Made by a program: the position numbers and the translations under genes. From IMG/VR virus record IMGVR_UViG_3300015202_000004, positions 129,980 to 193,979 of that record: 64,000 bases of DNA; one strand, written 5' to 3'. Below, in pieces: positions 13,245-59,291 of this stretch. Source of the DNA: a virus. A model generated the notes under the pieces. The model searched no databases, was not told where the DNA came from, and saw only the letters and a list, made by a program, of their open reading frames with translations. Numbering within the stretch: position 1 is the first letter of the stretch; the number at the start of each line of letters is the position of its first letter.

Positions 13245-13254
13245 CCTTTTGGGC

Positions 13255-13284: not shown

Positions 13285-13301
13285 CGAAACGTTAATGATT
13301 C

Positions 13302-13453: not shown

Positions 13454-13465
13454 CAATTTTTAAAG

Positions 13466-13611: not shown

Positions 13612-13622
13612 TTATTTTTATA

Positions 13623-13754
13623 GACTAAGGAGAAGAAGCAATCTCAGAGATTTTACGTGCTACCACTACACTACGTATCCGAGGATACGCCGGGATTCGA
13701 ACCCGGCCTGGTCTTGTTATATAAGAAGTAACTGAAATTTGTGCAACCTTAGTT
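13623..13754 (-). ncRNA. Y RNA-like ncRNA 3 (YrlA-type tRNA mimic)
   Basis: ACTAAGG/CCTTAGT stem; T-arm CCGGGTTCGAATCCCGG, acceptor CGTATCC/GGATACG, D-arm GTGTAGTGGTAGCAC. Confidence 0.88.
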
Positions 13755-13763
13755 GATTTTTTA

Positions 13764-13909
13764 GTTTAGTGAGAAGAAGCGCTTACGGTCTTTTTGAGAC
13801 TCCTGCTCTACCACTGAGCTATTCAGGCATATGTTGCCCGAAGCGGGATTCGAACACCGCGACCATGAGTGTGTTAATGAAGTATCCGATAAACTGTGCA
13901 ACACCAAAC
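13764..13909 (-). ncRNA. Y RNA-like ncRNA 4 (YrlA-type tRNA mimic)
   Basis: GTTTGGTG/CACTAAAC stem; T-arm GCGGTGTTCGAATCCCGC, acceptor TTCGGGC/GCCTGAA, D-arm GCTCAGTGGTAGAGC. Confidence 0.88.
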
Positions 13910-40895: not shown

Positions 40896-41594
40896 ATGGC
40901 TAACCGAAGCCGAAGTGCGGCTAACAAAATGAGCGCGATATTAAGACGGGATGGCCCCTATTGTAGCCTGTGTGGTTATTATGTGGTAGGCATATCGCGA
41001 ACGGTTGACCATATCGTAGAGAAGCGTAACGAAGGAGGCGATGAAATCGAAAACCTTCGGATGGCGCACCAGGCTTGCAACCAAGCTCGGGACTCTCATT
41101 ATACCCTTGATAAAAATATGACCATTGAATACCTCCAGGCACTTAAAGACCTGACGACGCGACTGAATGAATTGAACGCCCCATGGCGCTTCTTGAACGT
41201 TCCCGACAATGAGAAGCGTGATTTTGAAATCGAAATTAAGGCCAACTCCAACGACTTTGACAAAATCAGTAACCTTGGCAAAATTATCACCGGAGAAATG
41301 AATCACCTTTGGGGTTCGTTTATAAAAATATCGGTACTTAGTGATGATTCGGTATCCATCAGGACTCTACCTCTTGTTGAAAGCATTGAATTCTATCCAA
41401 CGGACGTTCTTCGTAAAGGCATTCAAATGTCAAACGAACAAAAGGGTAAAAGCGAGTTCGTTCGAGCGGTTCGACATATGCTTTGGACTTACTTGAATGA
41501 ACATGAAAACGAAATTTACCGAAAAATTTCCCGTTCTGATATGTTTCGGAATGCAGAAGGAAATCTACTAAATCTTGCAGAAATAAATGCATAA
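40896..41594 (+). CDS. HNH endonuclease domain protein
   Basis: RDG..C.LCG...TVDHI.....GG.D..ENLR.AH..CN. Confidence 0.8.
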   Translation: MANRSRSAANKMSAILRRDGPYCSLCGYYVVGISRTVDHIVEKRNEGGDEIENLRMAHQACNQARDSHYTLDKNMTIEYLQALKDLTTRLNELNAPWRFLNVPDNEKRDFEIEIKANSNDFDKISNLGKIITGEMNHLWGSFIKISVLSDDSVSIRTLPLVESIEFYPTDVLRKGIQMSNEQKGKSEFVRAVRHMLWTYLNEHENEIYRKISRSDMFRNAEGNLLNLAEINA

Positions 41595-41611
41595 GAAAGG
41601 ATGAAATATAT

Positions 41612-42079
41612 TTGAATTTACTAACACAAGCAATCATCATGGCTGCGACGGCATTCGATGAAATGAATGACCGTAGTGGCAATCCCATGATACTACACGC
41701 CATGCGAGTATCAGCCCGTGGAAAAACGATTGACGAGCAAATTGTCGGCGCTTTACACGACTTGGTTGAAGATACTCCGATTACTTTAGAAAAATTATCC
41801 GAAGTTTTTCCACAGCATATTGTAGAGACAGTGGATAAACTTTCAAGGCGAGACGGTGAGACATACAAGGAATTTATCAAAAGAATCAGCGAACACGAAC
41901 TGGCAACCCAGTGCAAGTTAAATGATTTAGCGGATAATCTTGGACGAGTAAGCAACCTTCCACCCGATGAAGGCAATGGTCTAAAGAAAAGGTATTTGCA
42001 GGCTCGCGCTTCTCTTGGTCAAACTTTGACAGAAGAAGAATCAGCCTGGTTAAAAAAATTCCTTTACGGACTAAAATGA
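41612..42079 (+). CDS. HD-domain (p)ppGpp hydrolase-like protein
   Basis: D.SG.P.ILH..RV, ALHDLVEDT, KL.DL.DN. Confidence 0.8.
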   Translation: MNLLTQAIIMAATAFDEMNDRSGNPMILHAMRVSARGKTIDEQIVGALHDLVEDTPITLEKLSEVFPQHIVETVDKLSRRDGETYKEFIKRISEHELATQCKLNDLADNLGRVSNLPPDEGNGLKKRYLQARASLGQTLTEEESAWLKKFLYGLK

Positions 42080-42125
42080 TAAAGACTCGTGTTTACGAGT
42101 CTTTATTTTATAAAGAGATTATGAT

Positions 42126-42464
42126 ATGGATATCAAGTTGTACGGAAACAATGTCAAGATAGGTATAGGGAAGTTCTTTAAGCCATTAGAAGAAAAATGG
42201 TTTGCACTTCCGTCGCCACTTCGGTTGGCTATGCTTAACTTTATGTCTTATTTTATAATCACAATCAATTTCAGAGCAGTTGCCGAAGCAAATTACCTTT
42301 GGACATTTATTACCGATATCATACTCGCTTGCCTTGGCTTTACCGTATTGAAACATATTCAAGAAGCAAATAGTAAATTCGAAATGATTTGTTATGCCAT
42401 CGGCGGAGCAATTGGAGCGCAAATAGCAATCTTTACTACTCTACATGCTTTATTAAAACATTAA
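42126..42464 (+). CDS. membrane protein
   Basis: Three hydrophobic segments; INFRAVA...GGAIGA. Confidence 0.55.
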   Translation: MDIKLYGNNVKIGIGKFFKPLEEKWFALPSPLRLAMLNFMSYFIITINFRAVAEANYLWTFITDIILACLGFTVLKHIQEANSKFEMICYAIGGAIGAQIAIFTTLHALLKH

Positions 42465-43222
42465 AGATTTTTATCAAAAGTAACTGATTTAAAAACATTT
42501 TTATTAGCGTCAGTAATTGGCGCTATTTTTACATTGGCAACTACATCAGAATTTTTTGTCTCAGAATCAAATTTTTCTTCTGGCTCATTTTTTAGATGAG
42601 TAAGATAATTATAAGAAGACTCAGTATATTGTGGTGAAATCATTGGCATTTTTCTTGCCCTCGCATTTGCATATCTCATGCTTAACTCCTGCATGTAACT
42701 TATTTCTGGCTCAGGTTCTGGTTCATAAACTTCTTCCTGTTGCTTCTCTTGTTTTTCGTTTGGTATAAAATCAACAGGATATATATGCCCAATTTGATAT
42801 GGAGTAGGTTCATATGTTTGATATGGTTCGATAGGGTCAACATTTATAAATCGGCGTCCAATACTTTGATACAATAAACTAGTTTGAATTGGATTAGCCA
42901 TAGATTCAGCTAATGCTTGACGCTCCGATTCTGTCGAAAGAGTCTGTTCAAGATTTATCAATCTTTGTTCTTGAGTTAAATCATTTCTTGGCCCAGGCAT
43001 TCTCAAAATAGAATCAGCCAATAAATGTCTAGCAGTTTCTGTATTTCTATATTCTGCTAAAATTCGTTCGCGTTCTTCTAAAGTCATAAGAAGGGCAGGT
43101 ATTTTCCCAGGTTCTTCAGGCATGATATATCTAATCCCTATGTTATCAAAATAAACTTTAAAAGACATGATAAGATTATAGCTTATGGACGCAATATTAT
43201 ACCACGTATATCTTTGATGCAC
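42461..43222 (-). CDS. hypothetical protein with a capsid-N-terminus-like segment (start uncertain)
   Basis: RQALAESMANPIQTSLLYQSIGRRFINVDPI. Confidence 0.45.
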   Translation of the reverse strand: MHQRYTWYNIASISYNLIMSFKVYFDNIGIRYIMPEEPGKIPALLMTLEERERILAEYRNTETARHLLADSILRMPGPRNDLTQEQRLINLEQTLSTESERQALAESMANPIQTSLLYQSIGRRFINVDPIEPYQTYEPTPYQIGHIYPVDFIPNEKQEKQQEEVYEPEPEPEISYMQELSMRYANARARKMPMISPQYTESSYNYLTHLKNEPEEKFDSETKNSDVVANVKIAPITDANKNVFKSVTFDKNL

Positions 43223-43301
43223 AAGCTACCTTCTAAAAGAGATTTCAAAAAAATTTTTAATAGGTATTGACTTTCTATATTCGATGTGATATAACTAGGG
43301 T

Positions 43302-44186
43302 ATGAAAGTTATCGACCAAATCAAGCCCAAGGACTTTGATACGATTAGCCAACAGATTCACAAGCTGTCGGCATTGACCAACGACAATGCTACCAGTTCG
43401 GTTGAAGCCGCGAACTATGCCGCCATCATTCAGAAGCTGCTTTGGAAGCATAATTTAACGCTAGACCAACTCGCGCCCCGTGCCGATGGTCGCAAGAAAT
43501 CCGCCGATTATAAGAAGGAAGATTTTACACTCGGCGTTGTCGCAAACGACCTGAAGCAATGGAAGATTAATTTGTTCGGTGCAATTGCCGAGAATAACTT
43601 CTGCAAAGTCTACAACTACACAAACAGTGAGTACGTCGTGGTCATTGGTGAAGATGACAATATTGTCGCAGTGAAGCAAATGTATGCATATCTCGAATAC
43701 GAAATTCGTTCACTGGGACGAAATGCATATAAGGTGAATCCGAATCGCGCTTACCACTCACAAATGGAGGCTCGTGTTTGGAAAGGTTCCTTCCGTGACG
43801 GCGCAGTAGGCACCGTTCGTCAACGCCTTGCTGCACAACGTACCGAGGACATTGAAGAAACGAACGTTGAACATAAGAAAAAGATTGCCCTTGAAACCGG
43901 AGTCAACGAAGAAGTCGCAATGGGCAACGCAGGTTCAGCCTTGGTAATTCAAAAAGACAAAGACATGATGGAAGCAGTTTACGAATTCTACCCTTCCCTG
44001 CGACCAACACCGCCGAGCGAAGATGAAGACGGCGGAACGGCCCAAGTCAAGTATAGCAAGCGTCGGGGTCGGCCTCGTGGTTCGGGCCAGTACAATAGGG
44101 CGGCGTACTGGCAGGGCGTCGAAGCAGGAAAATCGGTTAGACTTCAGAAGGAAGTTTCTGGTAGCCGAACGGCACTCAACAAGTAA
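43302..44186 (+). CDS. DUF2786-domain protein
   Basis: I.KL.AL.......EA......IQKLL.KHNL; W...L...IA.NNFC; SFRDG; AY.QG..AG. Confidence 0.75.
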   Translation: MKVIDQIKPKDFDTISQQIHKLSALTNDNATSSVEAANYAAIIQKLLWKHNLTLDQLAPRADGRKKSADYKKEDFTLGVVANDLKQWKINLFGAIAENNFCKVYNYTNSEYVVVIGEDDNIVAVKQMYAYLEYEIRSLGRNAYKVNPNRAYHSQMEARVWKGSFRDGAVGTVRQRLAAQRTEDIEETNVEHKKKIALETGVNEEVAMGNAGSALVIQKDKDMMEAVYEFYPSLRPTPPSEDEDGGTAQVKYSKRRGRPRGSGQYNRAAYWQGVEAGKSVRLQKEVSGSRTALNK

Positions 44187-44270
44187 CTAAAAAGACCAGT
44201 CGGAAGACTGGTCATTTTTTTGGTATTGACATTCGTATAATTTTCTGCTACTATAAACGAGAGGAATTAT

Positions 44271-44888
44271 ATGAAGCAAGACTATAACAAAATTAAAACG
44301 GCAATTCGATACTGGATGCACGGACGCGATTATCATCTTGCACTAAAGGCTATGGAGTTTGGATTAAAGCATCATACAGGTTTTCGCAAAGATGGAATCA
44401 CGCCGGAATTCCAACATCAAGTTTCGCAAGCTAATTTTGCTCGCACCCTTAACCTCATGTATCCAAATGAAACACTTGCAACGATTTTTCTGCATGATGT
44501 AGTAGAAGATTACGCCGTAAGCATCCATGAGATTGAACAAAAATTTGGTATCCAGGTTTCGAAAGCCGTTGAGCTAATGACGAATGCCTACCCGGATGGT
44601 ACGCCAAAGCCAATTGAGATTTATTATGCAAATATGAGCAATGATGCAATCGCAAGCATTGCCAAGGGATGCGACCGTATGCATAATCACCAAAGTATGC
44701 CAGGCGTTTATGCGATTGAAAAAATGCTTCGAAAAATCAACGAAACGAACGAATATATTCTGCCTATGCTGAAAACTGCAAGGAAGACTTTCACCGAACA
44801 AGAACCAGCTTACATGAATATTCGCCATATCTTGCAAATACAATCTGAAATGGTAGAAGCTATTTCGGATGTGCTAAAACGGTCATAA
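44271..44888 (+). CDS. HD-domain RelA/SpoT-hydrolase-like protein
   Basis: HTG.RKDG.TP...HQV, FLHDVVED, K..DRMHN. Confidence 0.8.
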   Translation: MKQDYNKIKTAIRYWMHGRDYHLALKAMEFGLKHHTGFRKDGITPEFQHQVSQANFARTLNLMYPNETLATIFLHDVVEDYAVSIHEIEQKFGIQVSKAVELMTNAYPDGTPKPIEIYYANMSNDAIASIAKGCDRMHNHQSMPGVYAIEKMLRKINETNEYILPMLKTARKTFTEQEPAYMNIRHILQIQSEMVEAISDVLKRS

Positions 44889-44932
44889 AAAACATTTGAC
44901 CTATTGACAAATCATTAATTAAATGGTATAAT

Positions 44933-45643
44933 ATGCACATGAAGCTTTACCATGGCACCAGCATGCAAGCCTTACCAAAGATTTTAAAGAATGGAATCCG
45001 TCCTCGTAGCGAAGAAATCGTTGGTAATTGGGAAGAGTTTCCATCAAAAACTGGTTACGTTTATCTAACTGTCGCCTACGCTTTATATTTCGCAATCACG
45101 GCAACCAAGGAAGATAAGAATGATGAAAGAAAATTTGTCATTGTAGAAATTGAAAGCGACCACCTGCGGCAGAATCGCTTGTGCCCCGACGAAGATTTTA
45201 TCGGACAAGTGCGTTCGCACCAAGAAGAAATCAGTTTGAAGAAAGCGACCGAAGAATGCAATCCGCTTGACTATCGGACTCATTGGAAGCTTAGTTTAGA
45301 AAAAATGGGCAATTGTTGTTACTACGGTAAGGTGCCAGTCACGGCAATCACCCGATACGCAATAATAGACACAAAAATTAACTGGAAACTGACCTTCCTT
45401 GGATTAGACCCAACCATCAGCATTATGAATTTTCGATTAATGTCAAAAAAGTACACTTCCCTAATCAGCCATATTTTTGACGGCACAGAAATTTACGATG
45501 AACAAGCCTTGTTTCAGCCATGGAAAGACATTGATGATGTGCCAGGTTTAGAATTTGCAAATAAAATGTTCGCAGATGCAAAAGCTTTTCAAAAAGAAAT
45601 GCAAGACCTTCGTGGTTCAAGTATTCAAGTATTTAAGTATTGA
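44933..45643 (+). CDS. possible ADP-ribosyltransferase-fold protein
   Basis: LYHGTS...IL..GI.P...VYLT...A pattern. Confidence 0.5.
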   Translation: MHMKLYHGTSMQALPKILKNGIRPRSEEIVGNWEEFPSKTGYVYLTVAYALYFAITATKEDKNDERKFVIVEIESDHLRQNRLCPDEDFIGQVRSHQEEISLKKATEECNPLDYRTHWKLSLEKMGNCCYYGKVPVTAITRYAIIDTKINWKLTFLGLDPTISIMNFRLMSKKYTSLISHIFDGTEIYDEQALFQPWKDIDDVPGLEFANKMFADAKAFQKEMQDLRGSSIQVFKY

Positions 45644-46646
45644 AGTGGTTGACGTAATTAATTAACTGTGGTATAATAAATAGGGAGTTATTAACGCAAA
45701 GAAAGGAAATTAATAATGTACGATATAGTGTATTTCTTTAAAACCATTGGAAAATACTGGTTTTATTACCCTATCATGGATAAAATTTCAGGAGTTAGGG
45801 AGCGTACTTACATGGAGCGAAATCCCGAAGGTCGGATTACACCTGACACATGGGGAAACCCCAAGTATACCTTTACCCAGCAAGTTGTGCAAAAAGCTAA
45901 AATTTTAGGTATTGACTTAAGCAACAAAATATGGTAACATGAAAACATGTTACCGAAAGGTTTTGAATATCGCCGAAAGAACAACAACATTTTCACTAGA
46001 AATAGTGCTAATGCTTGGTGGCTTTACTTCGATAATCAAAACACCTGGCTCTGTATCGTTTACACTGGCAGAGATTATCGCTACGAAATTGACCGACAAA
46101 TCTGTTGCTATAGCAAATTAGAGCTAGCACAAGAAGAATTGATTCAAGACTACCTAGAATTTTGCCAAGATGATTGAAAGGAGTACAAATGCAAGAAGCC
46201 GGGAATACTGATGACGCCAATCAAGCCATGTTTGATTCACCTATTAAACATACTGAGCAAGAGCAAAATGAGGTTTAAAAACCTCTTTTTTGTTATATAA
46301 GTCAGCAAATAAGAATATCATACTTATATATTCTTTTAAGGGTCATCAAATGATTAAAAATCCATTACAAATCGTCCCCAAGATAACAAAGTTGCCTACT
46401 CAGCATTCTTTTCCACTGATTTGGGAAATTAGAATTCATTTGGCAACTATCATATTGTTAAGTATCTTGTCTATCGTTTGTGTTTACAGCGGTTTATCTA
46501 GTGGCATTCCAATTGCCATTTTAGGTTCTGTCCCGGCTATGCTTTATGCATATCACGCCTGGTTTAAGATGGAAGAAATACTTAAGAAACTCCCTTAACA
46601 GACTAGATGGCTTAGTACTATAATTATTTAGTTAAAGGAAGTAATT

Positions 46647-47705
46647 ATGGCTGACTGGAAAGTTATCGCGGATAAGATTGTTTCATTTCCCCACCCTGGT
46701 GCAGATAAGTTGATGCTCGGGAAGGTTGGCTCATTCCAAGTAGTTGTTGGCAAATCAAACGAATATCAAAATGATGACATTGTAATTTTTGCTCCCGAAA
46801 AATCAATTTTACCTGATGAAATCAAGGGTAACTATTGCAACACCGATACGGGTTTGTCGTATCTAAGTGGACCCGACCATAACCGTGTAAAACGTGTCCG
46901 TCTTCGGGGCGAATATTCCGAAGGCGTAACTCTTTCTCGCGAATGGGTTGTATCTAAATTAGGATTAAATTCAATCAATGACATTCCATTGAACGAAGAC
47001 CTATCCGAAAAATTAGATATCAAAAAATTCGAGCCACCTATCCCATTTAACATGGCTGGACAACTTGAACGTATCGAAGGTATCTCTTTCCAGCGTCAGC
47101 ATGACGTTGAGCAGTTCCGTTTGTATAATTCGGAGTTGGTCGAAGGCGAAGATGTAATCGTGACAGAAAAAGTTCACGGTTCACAATTTGTTACTATTCG
47201 TAACGTCGAAGGCAAATGGTACGTTACCTCAAAAGGCATTGGCAAAGACGGTTTAGCCATTGTAGAATCTGAAGGGAACCTATACTGGCAGGCTCTTAAA
47301 AACTCTAGTCTTATGGACCTGGACATTTTTACCAAAGATACGGTCAACGAATATCAAATTTTTGGTGAAGTAATCCCTTGTCAAAAGGGATATTCTTACG
47401 GTCAAACCAAAGCGACCGTTAAAGTTTTTCGGTTTTTAGTAAATGGTCAAGACTATACTTTTGGTGAAGCGTCAATTTTTCTTGGTAAAGAAAACATGGT
47501 CCCGGTGCTTTACGAAGGACCTTACTCTGTTGACAAGATGGTTGAATTATCTAAAGGAATGGAAACCCTTTCTGGCAAGCAAGCCCATATTCGCGAAGGC
47601 GTTGTAGTTGCACCAGCAGTTCCACGTCAAAGCAAAGAGGGTTTTATGTTACTTTTGAAGGTAATAAACCCACGTTATAAGGACTCGGAAGAATCATTTT
47701 CGTAG
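46647..47705 (+). CDS. RNA ligase, Rnl2/DRB0094 family with N-terminal OB fold
   Basis: HPGADKL, RLRGEYSEG, TEKVHG, FGEV, VPVLY.GP, REGVVV, KVIN..Y. Confidence 0.9.
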   Translation: MADWKVIADKIVSFPHPGADKLMLGKVGSFQVVVGKSNEYQNDDIVIFAPEKSILPDEIKGNYCNTDTGLSYLSGPDHNRVKRVRLRGEYSEGVTLSREWVVSKLGLNSINDIPLNEDLSEKLDIKKFEPPIPFNMAGQLERIEGISFQRQHDVEQFRLYNSELVEGEDVIVTEKVHGSQFVTIRNVEGKWYVTSKGIGKDGLAIVESEGNLYWQALKNSSLMDLDIFTKDTVNEYQIFGEVIPCQKGYSYGQTKATVKVFRFLVNGQDYTFGEASIFLGKENMVPVLYEGPYSVDKMVELSKGMETLSGKQAHIREGVVVAPAVPRQSKEGFMLLLKVINPRYKDSEESFS

Positions 47706-48899
47706 TTAAAAAACCACCTTGCATTTAGTTGCGGGTGGTTTTTAATTACCTTGACTTTTGACCCAATGATATGGTAATATAATTAAATGAACGAGCGTAA
47801 GAAAAATCTAATCGACAAGCTAGAAATATGCCTCCTTTCAGTCGAAAATACTATTTTTAATAATAAACTTTCGATGCACAAGAAGATGGATGAAGATATT
47901 TTAAAGATTTGTAAAGCAACTTTACAAATTAACGAAAACATTTATACGCAAGTAAACTCTTTCATTGCGAATTTAAGTGACGACATTAATTCCGACTACG
48001 ATTTACTAGAACGCAATGTTGATAACATGGTTGAATCAGCCATTTCACAAGAAGGTGTTTCGCGCCGTTTCGTTCAAAAACTCTACCTCGAAGAAGGAAA
48101 AAATGGCTAAAACTGTTGCACCGTGCGTTGGTCCAAGCAAGTGTTCATGTAAAGATACTGTAAACTGTAAATTCGAAGAAGGCAAAAATACCATGTTATG
48201 CCCTGGCGATGTTAAGCACGGAGTAATGCTTCGTATGGTAACAGCAACGATTGACGGCTTAACAGTGGAAACGTACTCTTGCATGCAAAAAAAATGCGAT
48301 AGAGAGACGATTGTCTACTCGGGCGGGAAAGACTTGAACTTCAAAATCAGAAACCATTATGGCGTGAAATGATAGCATATTTAATTTTGCTTGTGAAGTC
48401 TGCGAGAGCTTCCATTGCTATTAACAAAGGGGAATGGGCAAAGGCCAGCCGAATTCTCGGATACGAAATTGGGCCAAGCATTCTACCAACAGGACAGGAA
48501 TAATAATGCAGGATTTATGTACGGACCCAACCCATTCAACCACTAGAGCTTTTATGGAACAACTAGGAATTTCAAGATTGTTAGTTTGTGCAGATTGCGG
48601 TAAAAAAGTAGACCGTAAAGACCCAAAGTGGGAATATACTTGCGACCAATGCAAGTGCAGTGCCAAGGCGCACGGCGAGACAATTTATACATTGTGTCAA
48701 CAGTGTAAAACATGTGGGTTCTACGTAGGTAAGTTCAGCGAAGGCTAATGTTATATCTAAATTTGATGGATATACTATTCCATCAACGATTCTCGGATGT
48801 TCTGCTGGCGTCGGAACAAAGGAAGTCACAGGTATAGTTGGCAATCAGCGATTGAAGTTGCTTTACAAAGAGTTACCAAGTAAAATTTATAAAGAAAGT

Positions 48900-49150
48900 A
48901 AAAAAAGACTACCGTTAAGTAGTCTTTTTTCATGACCTGCCTATCTTATTTACAGCAATAAGCTCCCAGTCATACGTTGTACCCCGCAACAGCTTTCTCG
49001 GAAGGCTAATCCGATTGCCGTAACACTGTGCCGAAGAAGTTTAGGGGATACTCTGTAAAAGCCTATCCCTATTCCGCGCCCCTCTCCATGGATGACGGCC
49101 TTCTACCGCCCAACAGTTTCCCGCACTTCAACGAGGGTTGGCCTTGACGT
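48900..49150 (-). ncRNA. orphan structured ncRNA A (about 250 nt)
   Basis: TTGACA-N17-TAGATT promoter (49157-49185); several hairpins; terminator at 48900-48930; no credible ORF. Confidence 0.6.
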
Positions 49151-49206
49151 TCCATTAATCTACCATAAGAATTGACTTGTGTCAAGCCTTGTGATATAAT
49201 AAATTT

Positions 49207-49425
49207 ATGAAAGTTCTCGGCAAAATTTTTAGTAGTATCTGCACCCTATTCTTTTCATTTCTAACAAATGCTGCCATTTCTGCCGCACAGTCTTCTTATA
49301 AGCATGGTCTTCATCAAGTGCGTACTGAGTTTTATCTAATCGCGGCAGGATTAAGCGCATTGTTCCTCTTTATGTCTATCGCAACTTTCTTTCTAAACAG
49401 TGTTGACAAACAAGTCAAAGTGTAG
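49207..49425 (+). CDS. small membrane protein
   Basis: Two hydrophobic segments; leaderless after TTGACT-N17-TATAAT. Confidence 0.55.
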   Translation: MKVLGKIFSSICTLFFSFLTNAAISAAQSSYKHGLHQVRTEFYLIAAGLSALFLFMSIATFFLNSVDKQVKV

Positions 49426-49436
49426 TACAATAAATG

Positions 49437-49752
49437 AGTTGGAAGTATCGAGCTTCCTTCATGGGTATGGCTGAATCCAAATAATGCTAAGGCTGGTTTG
49501 GTAAAGCGATATAATAATCTACAAGCAACTTAGCCCAACGGACAAGTGTCAGCGGGAAGTTAGTTGTTCCCTTCATTGTAAGAAGGGGAGGATAGCGTGA
49601 CAACGAAGGTAACTTTGTGGGTAACGTGGGTAAACAAAACCTGTTATAGACCAAGTAGGAAAGACGTTCTTGTTGACTCTTAGCCCGAAAGTAAAGGTAG
49701 ACAATCCTTTTATCCGCTTAAAACTCCCAAGTAGAAATACAAGGGAGTTTTT
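49437..49752 (+). ncRNA. orphan structured ncRNA B (about 315 nt)
   Basis: TTGACA-N17-TACAAT promoter; hairpins; terminator AAAACTCCC/GGGAGTTTT; no sense ORF. Confidence 0.65.
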
Positions 49753-49842
49753 TGTTTTTCCACAGCTTATTGTGGAAAACTTGTGCATAAAAACTTTTCC
49801 TCAAACCCATTGACTTTCTACTCGAAATACGCTATACTAATC

Positions 49843-50155
49843 GAGTCAGTAATGACAGGTTCGTCCGAAACGAGAACCTTGCCTTCCTGGGAATAAGTGT
49901 GAGACTTTCACAGTCAATAGACATGTACGTCCAGATGGAAAAAGTAGCAAACCCAACTCGCGAAGTTCGGACTGTCGTGAGAGGTATGGATAACACCTAT
50001 ACGTTGCTGGCTCTAGGCTTATATAACAAGGTTTTGAAAAGAACCGCCTAACCAGAACTAAAACAATCCGTCCAGTTGGTAGAGTTGGGACTCGTGAAAA
50101 GATAAACTACCGCAAATAACCCTTGATAGCGCAATCTATCAGGGGTTATTTGTTT
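49843..50155 (+). ncRNA. orphan structured ncRNA C (about 310 nt)
   Basis: TTGACT-N17-TATACT promoter; long-range stems and GNRA loops; terminator CAAATAACCTTGATAG/CTATCAGGGGTTATTTG. Confidence 0.65.
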
Positions 50156-50194
50156 CCCTTGACGTTTCCAACGTTTTATGGTAATATATAACGA

Positions 50195-50422
50195 ATGAGT
50201 AAGATTTTCGAGGTGACGATACACGAGTTACAATGTCCAAAATGCAAAGGTGTCGGCAAGCGACCAAAGAATGTAACGTCTGGCGGTTTAATTATTTTAC
50301 CAGATTGTAAACTGTGCAACGGCCTTGGGCATGTAGATAAAAAACGTATAAATAAATTTGAACGTAATCAAAGGAACAAATTCGGCAACCTTATTAAATT
50401 GTGGAAGGCAGCATTCAAGTGA
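50195..50422 (+). CDS. DnaJ-type zinc-finger small protein
   Basis: CPKCKGVG...CKLCNGLG. Confidence 0.6.
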   Translation: MSKIFEVTIHELQCPKCKGVGKRPKNVTSGGLIILPDCKLCNGLGHVDKKRINKFERNQRNKFGNLIKLWKAAFK

Positions 50423-50733
50423 ATTTTAATCTATCAGTTATGGACCGTGTTCATGGTGATTTTTCGCATGACTGGGATGCCAATGACCCTGTTCAAGTTT
50501 CCAATGCCCGTGAAATGTTTAATAATCTTAAAAAATTAGGCTACATGGTTTATGAAACTAAGAAGCTTGCTAAGGGTGGCGGCGTAACACATGAAGCCAT
50601 TCACAATTTTGATGCCCTGTGTAGTTCATACGTCTATCAAGAGCCAAAACCTGAACAAGGCGAAGGATTTTTAAAGAAAGTTGCAAATGTGGCGCGTCAA
50701 TTGACGGCGCACCCACCTGTCGCAGGCGGTTAA
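50401..50733 (+). CDS. small protein ending in Gly-Gly
   Basis: VMD..GD....WD..DP.QV..AR..F..L...GY...PPVAGG. Confidence 0.6.
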   Translation: MEGSIQVNFNLSVMDRVHGDFSHDWDANDPVQVSNAREMFNNLKKLGYMVYETKKLAKGGGVTHEAIHNFDALCSSYVYQEPKPEQGEGFLKKVANVARQLTAHPPVAGG

Positions 50734-52044
50734 ATGGTTGCATTATACCAAGCGCATATCGAAAAAGTAGCAGAATTTTTAAATTGTAAATTAGATTTAA
50801 AGCCGGGTCAACGTGGTATGATGTTTGTGGAATATGAACCGCCCACGATTCAAGGCCCTGTTATTGATGAATTTCCTGGTGGCGTTTTTCAATCGGCTCA
50901 AATCAAATATATCACGGTGTTGCATGAACTTGGTCATGTATTCCATGGGCATACCCAAGGCCGACCGCCTTTCGAGAATAAAACCTATTATTTTGATAAT
51001 GGGGTTCTTAAAAGCGAGGCTGAAGCATGGGATTATGCCATGCAAAATTGCATTGACGAATTTGAGCCTAGTACACTTCGGTTTATGCGCCAGTGTTTTA
51101 GTTCATATATTAAATCGGCAAAACAACGCGGCAATCGAAAAGGTCCAATAGATGACCCTGGTCGTGATTTTGTTGAATTTATTTATGACAAGCCTACTCC
51201 TTACGTTGTTTCCGTCTATGAAAAAATGGGTGGAGATAAGCTTGACGTTTTACTTTATACCCATGATGAAGACATAGAATGCAACCACGACCATAACGAC
51301 ATGGTTCTAGCAGCGAAGTATCAAGGGCGTAAGAAAGTATTTCGACGCACAATTCTTTCATATAGCTTTCCGTTGAAAGAAGATGGTAGTCGCGAGGCAG
51401 ACTGGATGGCGCCTTTTGAAGCGGGGCACCTTGCAACACAAGAAGAATTAGCCGAGGTGCGTAAGCAAGATGTTATCAAATATGTTCCTTTGCTTCTCAA
51501 AGAAAGAAAAGGGCGTAAATTACTACGCAAAAATATTGATGACAAGCAATGGGAAGAATACCTGAGAACAGGCTATTTTCACGTTAATTATAACGGTAAA
51601 CGCTATTTGATTTATGGTTACTACGGCGTCCAAGAAATGGATAAATTCGAACGTAGAGTCGTTTCTTATTGCTTACACGGGAAATCGCTTGATTTGCCAC
51701 AATCAGATGTTTTGTTGATTCAAAAATTAATGATTGAGACACAATTTGAAGAATTTGAAAAGCAAGCCCATATAACACATCACATTCATCGCGAAAAAGT
51801 TGTAACTTTTGACCCTTCGGCACATGTTAGTCTTTTGGGGGAAATTAAAAATATCCAGTTAAAAAACTACGAAAATTTGGTAAGAGCAGAGCAAGAATTC
51901 GATGAGCATGAAACTCGGGAACAAAAACTACTCGCAACATGGTCAGAAGCTTTTATAGAGAACAACGTCACCGATGAAGAAGAACAAGTTGTTCTTCCAA
52001 ATTCTATTGCCACTAATAAATTTGTCAAATACAGAGGAGAATAA
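50734..52044 (+). CDS. HExxH-domain multidomain protein
   Basis: VLHELGH...EAEAW.YA; C-terminal QWEEY...GYF.V...YCLH....LP.SDVLL.QKL.IE. Confidence 0.65.
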   Translation: MVALYQAHIEKVAEFLNCKLDLKPGQRGMMFVEYEPPTIQGPVIDEFPGGVFQSAQIKYITVLHELGHVFHGHTQGRPPFENKTYYFDNGVLKSEAEAWDYAMQNCIDEFEPSTLRFMRQCFSSYIKSAKQRGNRKGPIDDPGRDFVEFIYDKPTPYVVSVYEKMGGDKLDVLLYTHDEDIECNHDHNDMVLAAKYQGRKKVFRRTILSYSFPLKEDGSREADWMAPFEAGHLATQEELAEVRKQDVIKYVPLLLKERKGRKLLRKNIDDKQWEEYLRTGYFHVNYNGKRYLIYGYYGVQEMDKFERRVVSYCLHGKSLDLPQSDVLLIQKLMIETQFEEFEKQAHITHHIHREKVVTFDPSAHVSLLGEIKNIQLKNYENLVRAEQEFDEHETREQKLLATWSEAFIENNVTDEEEQVVLPNSIATNKFVKYRGE

Positions 52045-52473
52045 ATATGACATGCACACAATGCGACGGCCACAAAATTATCCGAACAGTAGTTCCTGCG
52101 CGAGCAGCAGGCTTTTTAGATGGAGTATGCGCCCGTTGCAATGGTACGGGAATGGAGCCTGATGGCATTAAAAGCTTGCCTACTCTCAACATTGAGCAGT
52201 TACGTCCTCACATTGGCGAACTCAATTGGATTCTTAAAGATTATGGCATTTCAATCGAAGCGACAGTCGATGATAACACGGGCGAAGTTGAAATGATTGA
52301 CAATATGCCAAATATTCGCATTGGATTTCCTCACCGTTGGGCCGGAAGCATCGTTTAGGTATTGACAAAAGTTCTTTTGATTATCTATTGACATGTAATC
52401 AAATACCTGTTATACTTGGTAAGTAAATAACACTATGGCTCATTTGAAGCCAGCACCCACTAGGAAATAAAAA

Positions 52474-53001
52474 TTGAGTACCAGCGCAATTGCAGAGTTA
52501 GAGCCCGAAACAATGCTCGATAATACTGCTCCTGTCGAAGTAGCAGTAGCCCCAGTCAGCGAAGAAGTAGTAGTAAAACGTTCCAAAGGTCGTCCAAATA
52601 TTCATCCGTTTGCAGGTCGCACGTATCTTCTTAAGAACGAGCTTAAGCTTGCTATGCAAGACAAAGAAGCCTTCGTTTCACTGATGAAAGAAACCTATCC
52701 GGTTAGCGATGAACGCAAGAAAGCACTTGGCACGGTTGTTAATGCGCCAAGCGAATTGTCTTTCACAATTCATGGTCCCATTCGCAATGTAATTGAACAA
52801 TTGCATAAGTTGCGCGGAATCTATGGCGACAAAGCCAAGATTAACATTTCCAAAGAACGTATGGTCGCACCGACCAGCGCCTTGTACTTGAAGCCCATTC
52901 AAGAAGTCATTGGTGAACGCAAAGGTAAATCAGTGTACAAACGTATTTTTGAAGAATATCGTTCAGACACTATTTACGGCTACGTCGTTGTTGCCATCTG
53001 A
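52474..53001 (+). CDS. hypothetical protein
   Basis: 175-aa ORF with AGGA SD and upstream promoters. Confidence 0.6.
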   Translation: MSTSAIAELEPETMLDNTAPVEVAVAPVSEEVVVKRSKGRPNIHPFAGRTYLLKNELKLAMQDKEAFVSLMKETYPVSDERKKALGTVVNAPSELSFTIHGPIRNVIEQLHKLRGIYGDKAKINISKERMVAPTSALYLKPIQEVIGERKGKSVYKRIFEEYRSDTIYGYVVVAI

Positions 53002-53440
53002 GACTAAATCCCATCCACGTCAACGTACAATCAGGTGGTCAGTAAATAAAAGAGGTTGCTTTGTAGTAACTTCTCATAAAACAGATGATAGCGGTTATGC
53101 TGTGGGCATGCGTAAAGGAAAACACGTAAAGCTACACCGTTATCTATATGAAGTCAGAAATGGCCCTTTAAAAGCAGGCTTAGTATTACTTCATGAATGT
53201 GACAACCGATTGTGCGTTAACCCAGGTCATCTAACCCCTGGTACTCACCAGGAAAACATGAATGATATGGTAAATAAAGGCCGTTCAGCCAAAGGTGAGA
53301 GAGTCGCTTCGTCAAAATTAACTAAAGCGCAAGTTGCAGTTATTAGACGAAGTAAACTTTCCACATTAGAACTGGCACAAAAGTTCAAAGTGCATCGTTC
53401 GACCATAGATAGGGTAAAAAATCGAACCCACTGGACATAA
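52910..53440 (+). CDS. HNH endonuclease (start uncertain)
   Basis: HRYLYE...LH.CDN..CVNP.HL..GT...N..DM..KGR, C-terminal HTH. Confidence 0.85.
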   Translation: MVNAKVNQCTNVFLKNIVQTLFTATSLLPSETKSHPRQRTIRWSVNKRGCFVVTSHKTDDSGYAVGMRKGKHVKLHRYLYEVRNGPLKAGLVLLHECDNRLCVNPGHLTPGTHQENMNDMVNKGRSAKGERVASSKLTKAQVAVIRRSKLSTLELAQKFKVHRSTIDRVKNRTHWT

Positions 53441-53771
53441 TTTAATCACTATGGTATAATGGACTCATGAAAACATCATGGGTCCATTTTCTTTTCGGTC
53501 TTACCTTGATTTTGCCTCATACTGGTGAAATTCTAGAGGGTCCACCGACCAAAGAAACTCGATTGGTCCAAGTTTGCCAGACCTTAGTGAATACCGATAA
53601 GCTTGCACAAGTGATTGGCAATGCTAATTTAGCGATTGAACGACAGAAGTGGAATCTAACTCATCGTGGAATTGCTGCAATTAATTTAAATACTCGGGTC
53701 TGCGTAACAAATGAGCCGCGTCCAACTTGGACACCTTTGCCAAAAACAACACCTCCTCCTGGTTCAAACGG

Positions 53772-54503
53772 TTACCGTTTCCCAGGGTGATTTTTTATTC
53801 TAGTCAGCCATTTGTTCCATTCTTCAAAACGAAAAGAGCCTTTTGCTTTATTGCACATTGAGCAGCATGGCGCAACATTTGATGCTGTATATCCTTCGTT
53901 ATTGTTTTTTCTATCAATTCCATTTAAGAAATTTTCGCGATAATATCCACAATAAAAACATTCTTTTCGAACCAATTCAAAAAACAAAGATTCAATGGTA
54001 AAAATTAAATTTCTTTTTTTAGCACTATAAATATATCTTTTCAGTGGACAATCATCGTGACCTGATTTTGAAATTATATTTAATCCAAACCAAGACAGTT
54101 TATGATTAGATTTACAAAAAGAACAATATTTTTGTTTATTTGTACAATTCAAAATTTGACAATCATGATTTTTGTTTGCTTCTTTAAGTTGACCAGCAAA
54201 ATTTTTATATAAATTTGAATGGCATTTTTTACATATAGTATAATGACCATTTTTATTTAATTTTTTAATAGGAAAAAAAGATAAAAATTTTTTAGTATTG
54301 CATTTTGAACATAAGCGTTCAACTTCATGACATAAATTTGAGCATAAATGTTCCGGTAAAAAACAACTGTTGCACAAAGAATAGCTTAAGTCTTTAAATC
54401 TCGATTTAACATCTTCATTTACTCTATTGCATTTATCACAAACAATATGAATGTATTTAACGTTTTGTTTTTTATTAAATTTATAATATTCTTCGATAAA
54501 CAT
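53772..54503 (-). CDS. HNH homing endonuclease-like protein
   Basis: CFYCG...NGIDRKNNNEGY...NV.PCC.MCN.AK; very AT-rich. Confidence 0.8.
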   Translation of the reverse strand: MFIEEYYKFNKKQNVKYIHIVCDKCNRVNEDVKSRFKDLSYSLCNSCFLPEHLCSNLCHEVERLCSKCNTKKFLSFFPIKKLNKNGHYTICKKCHSNLYKNFAGQLKEANKNHDCQILNCTNKQKYCSFCKSNHKLSWFGLNIISKSGHDDCPLKRYIYSAKKRNLIFTIESLFFELVRKECFYCGYYRENFLNGIDRKNNNEGYTASNVAPCCSMCNKAKGSFRFEEWNKWLTRIKNHPGKR

Positions 54504-54563
54504 AAAAATATCCTCGCACAGTACCTAACAATACATATGCGAGGATAAATTGTTTTGCAGCAA

Positions 54564-55088
54564 TTATTTTGTTGCGTAAAGTGCTACTCGTGCCATTCCG
54601 CCCATGCCTATAGCTGTTTTAGCAGCATAAGATAGGTCAATGATTCGTCCACCAGTGAAAGGTCCACGGTCAACAATTTTAACTAAAACACTTTTTAAAT
54701 TTGCTAAATTAACTACTTTTACAATTGTGCCAAACGGTAAATACCTATTGGCAGCAACCATGTCATAAGTATTAAATCTAACACCGCTTGCCGTTCTTGC
54801 GCCTTGGAACCCGTCGCCGAGCCCATACCATGATGCAATTCCGGTGGTGATGTATGCCATAGGTCTGGTTACCACTTTTAGTGGGTCAAAACGATGGTTT
54901 ATCTTGCGTTTCTTTTTCTTTTTCGTCTTTTTCAAGTCGAATTTTTCTAAGAAACTGAACCTACTAGCATCGCTAATAGGAACTGTTAGCGCATTGTGAT
55001 TAACTAATTGGGCACTAGCATTACTTCCTTGTAATACCATTGCGAACAATGTTGCTGTCACAACAAACTTTTTGATGATTTTTGTCAT
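54564..55088 (-). CDS. rlpA: RlpA-like lytic transglycosylase (DPBB domain), secreted
   Basis: GIASWYG..F.G..TASG.......AA.R.LPFGT.V.V.N......V...DRGPF...RIIDLS; signal peptide; AGGAG SD. Confidence 0.9.
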   Translation of the reverse strand: MTKIIKKFVVTATLFAMVLQGSNASAQLVNHNALTVPISDASRFSFLEKFDLKKTKKKKKRKINHRFDPLKVVTRPMAYITTGIASWYGLGDGFQGARTASGVRFNTYDMVAANRYLPFGTIVKVVNLANLKSVLVKIVDRGPFTGGRIIDLSYAAKTAIGMGGMARVALYATK

Positions 55089-57309
55089 TAAAGATTTCTC
55101 CTTTCTTGCCAAAACTCAACCCCATCTTATTATATTAGTACATGGCTGTCAACTTGACAAAATTATGAATATGTGCATAGCATTTTATATTACTTGAACC
55201 CTAATTGAAAGTCGTTATCAGGTGTGGGTCATGAAGCCTTCTTCGTCTTACAGGGCATTTTTTGAGCGTAAGCCAGGGCCTGTGAATAATGTGTATAAGA
55301 TTTTTGTCGCAGTATATTGACTTTGAATTTATCAAAGGGTAATATAGGGGTATCACTAATTGCCGCCCAAGGAGGCCGGATAGATGAACTCAGTTCGCCC
55401 AGTGTTTTCCATCACGTCTCACCTGAACGGAAAAATATACGAACTAATTCAGACGGACGCCAACAGTGGTCAGGGTAAACAGGTTCTACAAATAGCCACG
55501 AATGATGAAAAATACTTTCAGGCGCAAATTCCTGGGCGATTTACAGAATTCGTCATTGACCAGTCAAACCCTAGCCAGACCTACAAAGAGGCGGTTATGG
55601 AACTTTGTCAAGCCGTCGCTAAGGGAATAGAAATAAACGCCCTGGACGCGGCGCAGACACAATGGAATAATGGCGAACAACGAACTACGAACGGGCTTCT
55701 TTCCCATAGCAATAGCCGAAGTAGTCCGTCTTCCTCAAATAATAATCAGTTAGAAGTAAGGCAACTTGTCACTTGAGCCCTGCGTAAGCTGATTTTAAGA
55801 GCCCCAAGCAATTGGGGCTCTTTTTTATTGCTTGACAGGCAGGGCAATAAGTGATATAATAAAAATCATGAGCGTATATTCAAAAGTAATTTCAGAAGCA
55901 ACAAGCGTGAAGAACGTTCACGAGCTTGAGGAGATTGAAGAAATGATTCGAGGAATGTTTTCTACTACCTTGGACCATTTCACCAAAGCTGAATTGACGC
56001 GCATGGCTATTGAAGTGAATAGCATTCGCCTTTCGCCCGAATATCAAGAAGAAATTTCAGTTGCATAATGAACGAAAAGGAAGTGCGGGAAGCCAATCGG
56101 CTACGACGCAGCCTTAATAAGCAGAAGCACTTTAAGTGCCCGTTGTGCTTCCATGGGAAGCCGGGTCACGCAGGGAAAACTTGTATTGCTCCCGTTGAAA
56201 GCGAAAAATGTGGTTGCTTAGGTATTGACAAACGCTCATAGTTATGCTATATTATATACATGCTGCCAGATAAATATCCGGTATTTACTTTTAAAAAGTC
56301 AAATTCAACCAATCCACTTGGTTTCCGTTGGCTTCTTCAGCGTGAATATCTCTATGTAAACAACAGCCGAACATATTGGCATGTTTCGTTTTATGATAAT
56401 GTTGGCGAATCAGAAAGAGAATATGAAATAAATGCTATTAGCCGACGTTCATTATATCGTTCACTTGATGTGGCAAAGCAACACTTGATTATTGACTATT
56501 TAAAATACTACTGTCCAACAATCTTAAAAGAATTAGAAAACGAGGGGTTTGTGCCCCTGCCGTTCGAACATGATGAAATCGGCAAAGCAATCTCATAAAC
56601 AAATACCAATAGGTATTGACAAACGTCAAGGAGTATGGTAATATAAAAGCATGTCAAGATTCAATCGTCGTCCGACCCGTCGCTTTTCTAGACTCCTAGA
56701 TGGAATCGGAGCAGCCCTTATTACACTGGGAGCCCTTGCTCTCGGAATGCTTCCAGCAGTTGTCTATCTAGTCATTGGAGCCATTCTTTTTGGCTACAAC
56801 ATGTGGGCATACTTCGGTCTTCTTCTTCCTTGGTATTTGAATGCAGTTGGCGGCGTTATCGCCCCGTTGAACTTCGTGTTCGCATTCATTGCTTACGTCA
56901 TAATTAATTTCGCCCACCATGCCGCACCAATTATTCACTAATCACTAAATCAAAAGGAAAACAATATGCTTACACCAAATCAGGTTAATACCCATTTTAA
57001 CCTTGCTCAGGTAATCCTTGGCCTTACCGTGGTCCTTCTGTTCGTCGGACTGTATTTGAACAGCAACCTCATTATAGACTTGGCCCTTGGAATCAACATT
57101 TTCGTCGGTCTGCTCTTTCTTGTGTCAATTAATGCGTCAAATATTAAATTCCAATTTGAATTGATGCAGACGATTATGAAACAATCCAAGGAACACGCTT
57201 TGACAACGACTAACGCAATTTCAATAAAATAATTATTCACCTAGTTGGTAAAAAATAATACAAAAAAACAGCTTGACAATCCAAAAAAATGTAGTATAGT
57301 AGATGGTGA

Positions 57310-58137
57310 ATGCAAAAAGTAATTTATCACGGAAAATGTTCAGATGGATTTACTGGAGCGTGGGTTCTTAAGCAGGCTTACCCAGACGCAGAATTCTACG
57401 AAGGAATTTATCAAGAACCGCCTCCAGACGTGACCGACCGAGACGTAGTATTAGTAGACTTTTCTTACAAGCGGGAAATCATTGAAAAAATGTTGGAGTC
57501 TTGTAAGTCGTTGTTAATCTTGGACCACCACGTATCTGCCGAGGCGGATTTAAAAGATTTAAACCATCTAAAATTAAAGATGGTTTTCAACATGAAACTG
57601 TCTGGAGCAGGCGTTGCTTGGCAATATTATTTCCCAAACAAACGTGTCCCGGTACTTGTTCAGTATATCCAAGACCGAGATTTATGGGCAAATAAGCTTC
57701 CGCAAACTAAAGAAGTGGCTGCTTACATCTTCTCATTAGAGCAATCATTCGATTTATGGGATAAAATGGCCCAAATCGAAAGTTTTGAAGACGGTAAATT
57801 TCAAAACATTGTTGAACAAGGGGTTACCCTCGTCCGCAAGCAAGACAAAGATGTAAAACAACTTGTAGAATTAATGCAGCGTTCGATGAATATTGGCGGG
57901 CATGAAGTCCCAGTTGCAAATATTCCCCACACAATGGCCTCCGAAGCGGGACAATTGATGGCAAAAGGAAATAAATTTGCCGCAAATTATTGGGATACCG
58001 CCGATGGTCGTATCTTCTCCTTACGGTCGGAACCAGGTGGAATGGACGTTTCAATTATCGCCGCGAATTATGGTGGCGGTGGGCATAAACATGCCGCAGG
58101 ATTCCGTATGCCCCTTGGTTGGGAAGGCGAAGTTTAG
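57310..58137 (+). CDS. DHH/DHHA1 phosphoesterase
   Basis: YHG.C.DG, VDFS, LDHH, SGA, QDRDLW, SLRS, GGGGHKHAAGF. Confidence 0.9.
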   Translation: MQKVIYHGKCSDGFTGAWVLKQAYPDAEFYEGIYQEPPPDVTDRDVVLVDFSYKREIIEKMLESCKSLLILDHHVSAEADLKDLNHLKLKMVFNMKLSGAGVAWQYYFPNKRVPVLVQYIQDRDLWANKLPQTKEVAAYIFSLEQSFDLWDKMAQIESFEDGKFQNIVEQGVTLVRKQDKDVKQLVELMQRSMNIGGHEVPVANIPHTMASEAGQLMAKGNKFAANYWDTADGRIFSLRSEPGGMDVSIIAANYGGGGHKHAAGFRMPLGWEGEV

Positions 58138-59291
58138 GTATTGACAAAAACAAGCGAACAAGGTATAGTAAACACATGGGATATAACACTGTCGTAACAA
58201 TTATCAATGATAATTTTTCAGCCATCGAAAGTAATCCAGAGGGCTTCGTTGAGGCCATCCGTGAAGGAATGAACAATAAGGATTCTTCGGAATTACTGGT
58301 TCGTTTTAAAGATTCGAACCTAGGCCGAACGGTTGGGAAAGTCATGCAAGCCGCACATGCTGATGAAACCCAAGTTGTTGTCGTGGGCCGTAATACTGCC
58401 AATCGCGTTCTTTCGGAATATTACCTCGGCATGGAGCCTGAGCAAATTCTTCGTCGCCTTGCAGACAAGCTTGGATTCACAGTTTCAAAGAAACAGAAAG
58501 TAATTTAATATGAAAATTCATCTAGACTTTATTATTGGAATCATTGTCTTCTTCGTGACTCTGGTTCAATCACACGACCTTGTTTCATCGCTAATTTGGG
58601 GCGTTGGTTCTTTCTTAGTAGTTGACATTTTTCTGTTGCTTTTGACAGGCGTTATTTTCACCGTCATCGGTTTTATTAAAGTTCGTGAAGACCAGAAAAA
58701 AAACTCAAACCTTCAGAACACGCCTTAAGAAGGTATTGACATTGAATGACTTTTGTGGTAGTATAAATACATGGCAAAAGCATTCTCGGTACTGAAAGTA
58801 AAAGATAACACGGAAGCCGCAGTTCTCCAAGTTTGTTTGGAAAACTACTTCTCTAGTTCTCTTGGCAATCCCCTTTATCGCAATTCAGCCCGTCATATGC
58901 TGAAGCGATTAAATCGGGAGTTGGAAAAGTAATGAAAGCACAAAAAGTCGGTACCATTACTTGGGAGCCTGCTGATGAAGATGACGTTCAATTATACACC
59001 AACAGCGAAGACGTATCTCGTTTTGAAGCTGAATTGGATGACAGCGATTCTTACCATGACCAGAGTTTTGAAGAAATGATTATGGGCAAGTACGCCGAAT
59101 TCCATGATTGTTGCCCTGATTGTGCCAATTATATTGATGCTCGTACCATGCGTTGCAGTTGCAAACTTTGGGACCGAAATATTGACTAAATTAGAGAGAC
59201 AGGTCTTCCTGTTTGGTAATTAAAAGCTTTTATAATAGTTGACAAAAAAACTTGTTCTGCTATACTAAGTAAGTGAAAACACACTCTCTCT

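Follow-up and report, generated by a model that had tools for sequence, protein, structure and literature searches.

A conserved structured non-coding RNA of a myophage found in ice and glacier metagenomes: a candidate RNA-only particle

Does a region of a few hundred nucleotides, bounded by a promoter and a terminator-like hairpin in the genome of an uncultured phage, encode a genuine structured RNA, and if so, what could such an RNA do? The window, by which we mean the whole 64,000-nt stretch of DNA that was analysed, makes up the final 64 kb of a virus record of 193,979 bp (G000), a myophage that is 87% complete according to CheckV and is present in ice and glacier metagenomes. This phage encodes a tail sheath, a baseplate, a DNA polymerase and 46 tRNA calls; no cultured relative came to light, and the top tail-sheath hits in a set of 50,697 phage records share 28-32% identity. 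A previous sequence-only reading had described an orphan, multi-stem, free-standing RNA with GNRA loops, hereafter RNA C, and this description is borne out by its homologues, by the match of a covariance model and by the lack of any Rfam match, all of which are presented below. Our study indicates that RNA C is almost certainly a conserved structured non-coding RNA; its existence as a real, structured RNA is well supported, and it is probably expressed. Table 1 includes the positions of its parts and of the genes and RNA units considered here.

Table 1. Positions, in window coordinates, of RNA C, its helices, the two neighbouring RNA units and selected phage genes.
Feature	Position	Strand	Remarks
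RNA C, structured body	49845..50111	+	267 nt; start inferred from promoter
Sigma70-type promoter TTGACT-17-TATACT	49810..49838	+	promoter scan, 10/12
Terminator-like hairpin	50112..50155	+	17-18 bp, short U-rich tail (hairpin 50112-50153); not conserved
P1, 4-bp GNRA hairpin	49845..49856	+	1/4 pairs double-changed; 100% of cells paired (sequence-only alignment)
P2, loop 49864-49868 UCCGA	49857..49879	+	predicted partner P4 loop (PK1); PK1 invariant
P3, long stem, apical P3b 49903-49915	49887..49934	+	double-changed pairs: P3 2/5, P3b 1/3
P4, hairpin, loop 49966-49971 KUCGGA	49957..49981	+	4/9 double-changed
P5, variable hairpin	49984..50002	+	4/6 double-changed, hand-chosen register
P6, most conserved domain	50003..50058	+	comparison, covariance model
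P8, 3' hairpin	50078..50111	+	loop holds PK2 partner 50094-50099; 4/5 double-changed, hand register
RNA B, neighbouring unit	49436..49755	+	promoter 49403-49431; contigs 49447-49731 in 4/4 RNA runs
RNA A, neighbouring unit	48930..49152	-	strand inferred from promoter and terminator; contigs 48939-49136 in 2/4 RNA runs
RtcB	2662-4788		708 aa; long insertion, perhaps an intein
Ro60/TROVE gene	11420-13156	-	
Metallophosphatase	19468-20310		
tRNA nucleotidyltransferase	23498-25066		
RNA ligase	46647-47705		
ORF with conserved KGRP-x-x-H stretch	52474-53001	+	175 aa; steady neighbour of RNA C

The promoter that the sequence-only reading had proposed was recovered by the promoter scan, and a promoter is present upstream of both homologues of RNA C as well, with the same spacing to P1: in all three sequences, P1 begins 7 nt past the -10 box, and the -35 box lies 17 nt upstream of that box. 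The proposed length of about 310 nt includes the terminator, and the structured body is correspondingly shorter. A hairpin does exist where a 16-bp terminator had been placed, and it is slightly longer than was thought, but it is absent from the output of the terminator scan and unconserved in both homologues. Four DNA runs contain no variants within RNA C. A 50-aa ORF (49899-50051) lies inside it, and its frame is interrupted in both homologues by a TGA that sits three codons ahead of the conserved core (L029:1489-1491 and L061:568-570). We also considered one hexamer of RNA C as a mimic of the -10 box, and dropped this role because the hexamer is not kept in the homologues.

Special attention was given to the search for homologues. 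Related phage records were reached through a tail-sheath alignment, which succeeded where queries with neighbouring proteins retrieved no loci in viral contigs; the sheath of one of these records, G003, is 50% identical. Judged by the tail sheath, the phage has 27 close relatives. In G003, a 23-nt blastn match turned out to be a full-length homologue (L029:1341-1601). A metagenome pattern scan gave seven loci, of which two are copies of the L029 sequence, two are copies of a third sequence (L061 and L063) and three are unrelated coding sequences. True matches per pattern scan amounted to 1/1, 1/2, 4/7 and 1/3, with 0 in GTDB genomes, and additional pattern scans and alignment searches yielded no further distinct sequences. 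The family is thus made up of three distinct sequences, RNA C (G000), L029 (G003) and L061/L063, all of them from one phage clade. Their pairwise identities in the MAFFT alignment are 50%, 53% and 67%, the homologues being 50-53% identical to RNA C. Six other loci (L057, L058, L060, L064, L065 and L067) were rejected, since the rest of the RNA is missing from them and their best model score is E 2.5.

We then relied on a covariance model, R1, that covers the P4-P6 part and was built from the two homologues without RNA C. R1 detects RNA C at 66.6 bits (E 8.9e-17), the next match in 592 kb having an E value of 1.2. It found no second copy in G000, G003, G004 or 39.5 of the 40.4 kb of G001, and no match in 13 distant records, in a scan that carried no positive control. 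The records G003 and G004 overlap by ~46 kb at 99.99-100% and together represent ~250 kb of one phage that is syntenic with G000; among the 280 predicted ORFs of G000, 86 match G004 and 21 match G003. An alignment search (A4) recovered only G003 in viral contigs and no match in genomes, and blastn against 50,697 phage records and 72,556 plasmids returned just short chance matches. An Rfam scan had been suggested for this locus together with a covariation analysis, and both were run. At the gathering score, Rfam 15, whose models were all covered (among them manA, ROOL, GOLLD, raiA, OLE, riboswitches and ribozymes, to the extent that it contains them), reports only six tRNAs in the window and no family over RNA C; with E values up to 10, the best match over the body has E 5.6 and nothing is credible, while the homologues reach E 1.2 at best. 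A His-leader match (E 0.18) depends on the terminator hairpin, outside the body. Literature searches brought up no description of RNA C, and a fragment of it could sit among the candidates of PMC10690425, which are at most 151 nt in the part of that article available. On these searches, RNA C constitutes a new family within the ornate phage ncRNAs of unknown function and belongs to no Rfam family.

Single-sequence folding of RNA C is not beyond chance (z of -0.75 for 49840-50115 and -1.29 for 49845-50112, reaching -3.82 only once the terminator is added), so that the structure rests on the homologues. Their comparison leads to a chain of seven hairpins with two GNRA loops and two predicted loop-loop pairings. 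Several of the pairings that were visible by eye have a place in this chain: GTCA-GTAA-TGAC is P1, CTGG..TAGGC/GCCTA..CCAG is present and is its most conserved part, and GGTTTT-GAAA-AGAACC is present too. For AGGTTC/GAACCT the complementarity exists, but the homologues prefer a register that leaves a 2-nt bulge and closes a loop of 7 nt. The hairpins P3, P4, P5 and P8 and both loop-loop pairings had previously gone unnoticed. The loop of P1 reads GUAA, GCGA and GUGA across the three sequences, and both tetraloops remain GNRA in all three despite changes in their letters. An A-rich linker separates P3 from P4. The P6 domain is built of stacked stems with a 3x1 internal loop, together with a single strand of 11 nt (50019-50029) and a hairpin capped by a GNRA loop (50030-50045); in its core, two invariant short stems flank the 3x1 loop. 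As for the loop-loop pairings, the five pairs of PK1 are all invariant in the three sequences (duplex of -9.8 kcal/mol), whereas PK2, predicted between the P3b loop (49906-49911) and the P8 loop, has 3/6 pairs double-changed in the hand register, these compensatory changes falling in three adjacent pairs. Since PK1 and the inner P6 stems never vary, they are without covariation support.

The covariation analysis was carried out with three alignments. In the hand register, 192 of 199 cells are paired and 29 of 67 pairs are double-changed, compared with 32-43% and at most three double changes in slid controls. It is important to note that this register was set on the same three sequences on which it is scored, and for this reason two further checks were made, with a sequence-only alignment and with a model-fitted one. 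In the sequence-only alignment, 79.7% of cells are paired and 20/61 pairs are double-changed (slid controls at most 45% and 6), and none of 500 shuffles is as good. The weak spots there are P3b (56% of cells), PK2 (67%) and P8 (47%); P3b and PK2 are poor because the MAFFT alignment is off by one, and on this unfitted alignment P8 and PK2 are not recovered. The model-fitted alignment of P4-P6 has 94.4% of cells paired and 10/24 double changes, and the model, built without RNA C, put the P4 stem in a nearly identical register. In seven helices, all 12 pairs at which RNA C differs on both sides from both homologues still pair, for which the nominal chance of 6e-6 is optimistic because it relies on the hand register.

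Two long-range helices that had been proposed fare less well in this comparison. The CGAGTC/GACTCG helix is unlikely: the four pairs that can be counted hold in 67% of cells with no double change, the first three letters of CGAGTC precede the inferred start, and the other three are used by P1. The 8-bp helix CCCAACTC/GAGTTGGG holds in 70% of cells on the unfitted alignment, with 3/8 pairs double-changed, but it overlaps the base of P4, which is better supported, and the edge of P8, so it may be an alternative conformer or chance. Counterparts of 4-5 bp are possible in both homologues. Shuffling yields a perfect 8-bp helix in 29% of 3000 cases, and both long-range helices jointly are matched by 24 of 500 shuffles. 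Two further elements were left outside the chain: a third pseudoknot, between the P5 loop and the linker after P6, is compatible with both homologues though not, in the same register, with RNA C, and a 3' H-type helix, P7, has all four pairs changed, lacks a spacer in RNA C and was excluded from the totals. The 11-nt strand of P6 carries an 8-nt self-complementary run whose self-duplex is worth just -3.2 to -4.2 kcal/mol, and cofolding at 37 C uses this strand in RNA C and in neither homologue. The same 11 nt also occur in a repeat upstream of Ro60 (13724, minus strand) and at 46300, with ~0.4 copies expected; a meaning for these extra copies was rejected, as the G004 repeats lack the strand, and they were treated as chance.

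Contigs from four of four RNA runs, all from a single ice metatranscriptome sample, cover RNA C from 49853 to 50122; the cluster of three RNAs that had been proposed is likewise seen in RNA, with units C and B in all four runs and unit A in two. Within 41001-59000 (18 kb), RNA-run contigs cover units A, B and C alone and no ORF, with the proviso that the runs were picked through the stretch 48900-50200, so that cover there is by choice, and that contigs of one sample convey no strand, ends or level. All 10 pieces from RNA runs lie entirely within the three promoter-terminator units, compared with three of nine pieces from four DNA runs, which argues against DNA carry-over; a random piece within 48900-50200 is expected to fall wholly inside units A-C 4-31% of the time. 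One RNA-run contig is unbroken across 49853-50114, an observation with which partial cleavage would still be compatible. At position 49536, in RNA B, all four RNA runs have T where the window has C, and the DNA runs X7 and X20 cover this position with no change listed; the difference is either a strain variant or editing.

No homologues of RNA A or RNA B were found in G001, G003 or G004, nor beside the homologues of RNA C. Of the island's RNAs, RNA C is therefore the only one present at all three loci examined. We had presumed RNA B to resemble a c-di-AMP riboswitch and RNA A to resemble group I introns, and neither resemblance has Rfam support. The link with the RNA ligase gene that the sequence-only reading had drawn does not hold up: in G003 the ligase lies ~49 kb from the homologue, so the link is not conserved. 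Both homologues of RNA C sit among other non-coding elements, none of them detectably akin to RNAs A or B. Beside the G003 homologue there is a different, strongly folding 295-nt orphan element (L043:7266-7560, minus strand; -91.8 kcal/mol, computed without a shuffle control), for which G000 holds no match. A 45-nt hairpin stands 3' of the RNA C homologue in G003 (L043:8071-8115) and in L063 (964-1008), 93% identical between them, and is missing from L061, which is near-identical to L063. We also observed a 61-nt mini tRNA-like element (L055:3358-3418, plus strand) with its own promoter-like site and a CCA end; its match to the tmRNA model (E 1.3e-7) is confined to the ends of that model, and it has a G-U at the third acceptor position.

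Regarding the protein-coding surroundings, the ORF at 52474-53001 and the RNA are separated by 2-3.3 kb in the window, in G003 and in L063. This ORF has no Pfam, PHROG or Atlas match, and its structural model (pLDDT 77) retrieves only common folds, with a best Z of 5.9; as it has no clear fold, no protein partner is proposed for RNA C. A 436-aa ORF (50734-52044, plus strand) has an HExxH word and no Pfam or PHROG match. Elsewhere in the window, RtcB, the tRNA nucleotidyltransferase, the RNA ligase and the metallophosphatase make up an RNA-repair set, and three tRNA-like repeats precede Ro60 (window 11420-13890, minus strand), those at 13657-13889 being YrlA-like; the YrlA model matches twice here, weakly and short of the gathering score (E 1.4e-4 and 3.2e-4); G004 also has a Ro60 gene with similar upstream repeats. 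Just ahead of the window lies an ARAGORN tRNA call whose anticodon is CUA (G000:C1:129778-129853, minus strand), a possible suppressor tRNA in a phage in which TAG ends 20 of 133 long ORFs.

What, then, does RNA C resemble? The comparisons that follow draw on the accessible parts of the sources cited. ROOL and GOLLD assemble into nanocages, which kissing loops and A-minor contacts hold together (10.1101/2024.12.08.627333), and like RNA C they are phage ncRNAs of unknown function, with pseudoknots, GNRA/A-minor contacts and covarying kissing loops (10.1101/2024.12.08.627333, PMC5737381). They differ in size and architecture: ROOL averages 581 nt and has six multistem junctions (PMC5737381), whereas RNA C is under half that length and is modelled without an enclosing multistem junction, and many GOLLD RNAs exceed 800 nt, compared with the 267 nt of RNA C, which has no Rfam match. 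In phages, ROOL and GOLLD are often near tRNA genes; for RNA C, the distance to the closest tRNA call is ~40 kb in the window and ~0.55 kb in G003. The manA RNA (RF01745) is also phage-associated and similar in size; its cages are built from an RNA of <200 nt by way of two kissing-loop interfaces together with a GNRA contact, the interfaces giving pentamers and a 60-mer (10.64898/2026.07.01.735769). manA is, however, shorter and often found in 5' UTRs, while RNA C is free-standing, its assembly is only predicted, and it has no match to this family at E up to 10. The orphan RNAs ARRPOF and EGFOA reach ~255 nt and assemble as dimers or trimers (PMC12990946; 10.64898/2026.07.01.735769), but RNA C matches neither in Rfam, and the available text does not describe them as phage RNAs. 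The covarying complementary loops by which RNA-only oligomers are recognised are found in PK2 (3/6 pairs), with PK1 invariant, among three sequences. Palindromic pairing is a known dimer motif (PMC12990946).

Other relatives are more distant. The phage encodes Ro60, and the P2 loop recalls the GGUCCGA contact of Ro60 given in PMC4201824; the accessible part of that article places YrlA RNAs within 4 kb of Ro60 and on the same strand, whereas RNA C is ~37 kb off and on the other strand. The GNCGAA motif near the 5' end is absent in RNA C and L029 and is only internal in L061, and for a tRNA-like domain the T-arm word appears in one of three sequences, with no tRNA call in RNA C. The long ncRNAs of the staphylococcal phages K and vB_SauM-515A1 are likewise phage ncRNAs of unknown function and are well expressed, as far as the available part of PMC10383478 goes; no sequence similarity of RNA C to them was found among 50,697 phage records. 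RNase P RNA was rejected, since the region I/V words (helix P4 of RNase P) are missing and there is no Rfam match; the likeness noted at first in RNA C proved to be its own P4 kissing loop. tmRNA was rejected too: ARAGORN finds none in G000, G001, G003 or G004, and the reading frame is unconserved.

Our preferred explanation, to which we give a probability of roughly 40%, is that RNA C forms a compact RNA-only particle, probably oligomeric like ROOL, GOLLD and manA, that displays the invariant P6 internal loop to a partner. A free-standing RNA with conserved tertiary contacts and without an adjacent partner gene resembles the protein-free assembling phage RNAs. The host sigma70 polymerase would transcribe RNA C from 49845; the P2 and P3b loops would pair with those of P4 and P8, respectively, and the two GNRA loops would dock onto helices. 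Separate molecules could be joined by one or both loop-loop contacts or by the 8-nt self-complementary strand of P6. The folded RNA would be stable and would build up in infected cells, where the displayed P6 loop would bind or decoy a host or phage partner, so that RNA C would act as a scaffold or decoy during infection. In a bolder version, which we consider doubtful, both loop pairings would be intermolecular and the P6 strand would cross-link the molecules into a protein-free ring or cage that shields phage tRNAs or traps a host RNA-damaging defence enzyme, and RNA C would be the founder of a new self-assembling phage RNA family.

The conservation centred on P6 is also what would be expected of a monomeric decoy or aptamer, in which intramolecular loop contacts brace P6 and P6 soaks up a defence protein, a nuclease or a nucleotide signal. 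The linkers of 16-22 nt would permit an intramolecular PK1, and the RtcB, RNA ligase, tRNA nucleotidyltransferase and Ro60 genes of the phage, along with its 46 tRNA calls, suggest pressure by host RNA-damaging defences. Nevertheless, no partner gene adjoins RNA C, the T-arm word is missing from two of three sequences, there are no repeated GGA loops and no Rfam aptamer family matches, and we regard this possibility as rather unlikely. The invariant letters of P6 would equally suit a catalytic or a ligand site, and a new ribozyme class whose active site is P6, and whose substrate is either the RNA itself or phage tRNA precursors, would agree with a phage rich in tRNAs and with the two pseudoknot-type contacts and invariant core typical of catalytic RNAs by the criteria in the available part of PMC5737381. 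Against this option, which the sequence-only reading had raised, no known ribozyme core was found in Rfam or in a word scan: Rfam gives no ribozyme match at E up to 10, and, save for a loose RNase P word in L061, none of the three sequences contains the short core words of hammerhead, RNase P or group I RNAs. On these grounds, we rejected the known self-cleaving and group I ribozymes, and the unbroken RNA contig also speaks against cleavage, partial cleavage apart; a new class therefore seems unlikely.

The remaining explanations are weaker still. The prohead RNA of phage phi29 forms a ring by intermolecular loop pairing, and a virion or packaging RNA of this kind is conceivable, given that the two complementary loop pairs could chain molecules and that RNA C keeps a fixed syntenic position near the ORF at 52474-53001 in the three of three loci long enough to show it. 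Yet RNA C lies outside the structural region of this contractile-tailed phage, has a host-type promoter and matches no Rfam family, which makes a packaging role improbable; phi29 prohead RNA is among the RNAs named in the accessible part of PMC12990946. Even less probable is that RNA C acts in cis, as a leader or riboswitch of the gene downstream of it (50195). The terminator-like hairpin directly 3' of P8 and a possible switch through the alternative 8-bp helix could be cited in favour, but the downstream ORF has its own promoter-like site (50159-50187), the non-coding elements that come after the homologues vary, even from L061 to L063, and the divergence of downstream sequence and terminator speaks against it. 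In template RNAs, a scaffold keeps a conserved single strand exposed, a layout that the 11-nt P6 strand fits. It is nevertheless very improbable that RNA C serves an enzyme encoded elsewhere, be it a reverse transcriptase or a nuclease, as template or scaffold, as RVT_1 is found in none of three incomplete records (G000, G003 and G004; 78-87% complete) and no enzyme gene adjoins any of the three RNAs; with no adjacent reverse transcriptase in three of three cases, a retron or DRT ncRNA was rejected. Finally, a small mRNA for the 50-aa ORF or a functionless spacer, for which one could invoke the existence of the ORF in the window and the unremarkable single-sequence folding, is hardly credible given the TGA in the frame of both homologues and compensatory changes that fit structure rather than coding.

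We therefore return to the RNA-only particle as our leading reading. ROOL, GOLLD and manA form striking RNA-only assemblies of open function, and RNA C represents an unrelated and much shorter family. Three natural sequence variants of it exist, its contacts are defined well enough to be disrupted and restored, and there is a sign that it is expressed in the environment. Related phages bear other, different orphan RNAs beside RNA C, which makes this uncultured clade a likely source of new folds. If the self-assembling cage were true, the changing RNA islands of the clade would be an arsenal of RNA-only counter-defence devices.
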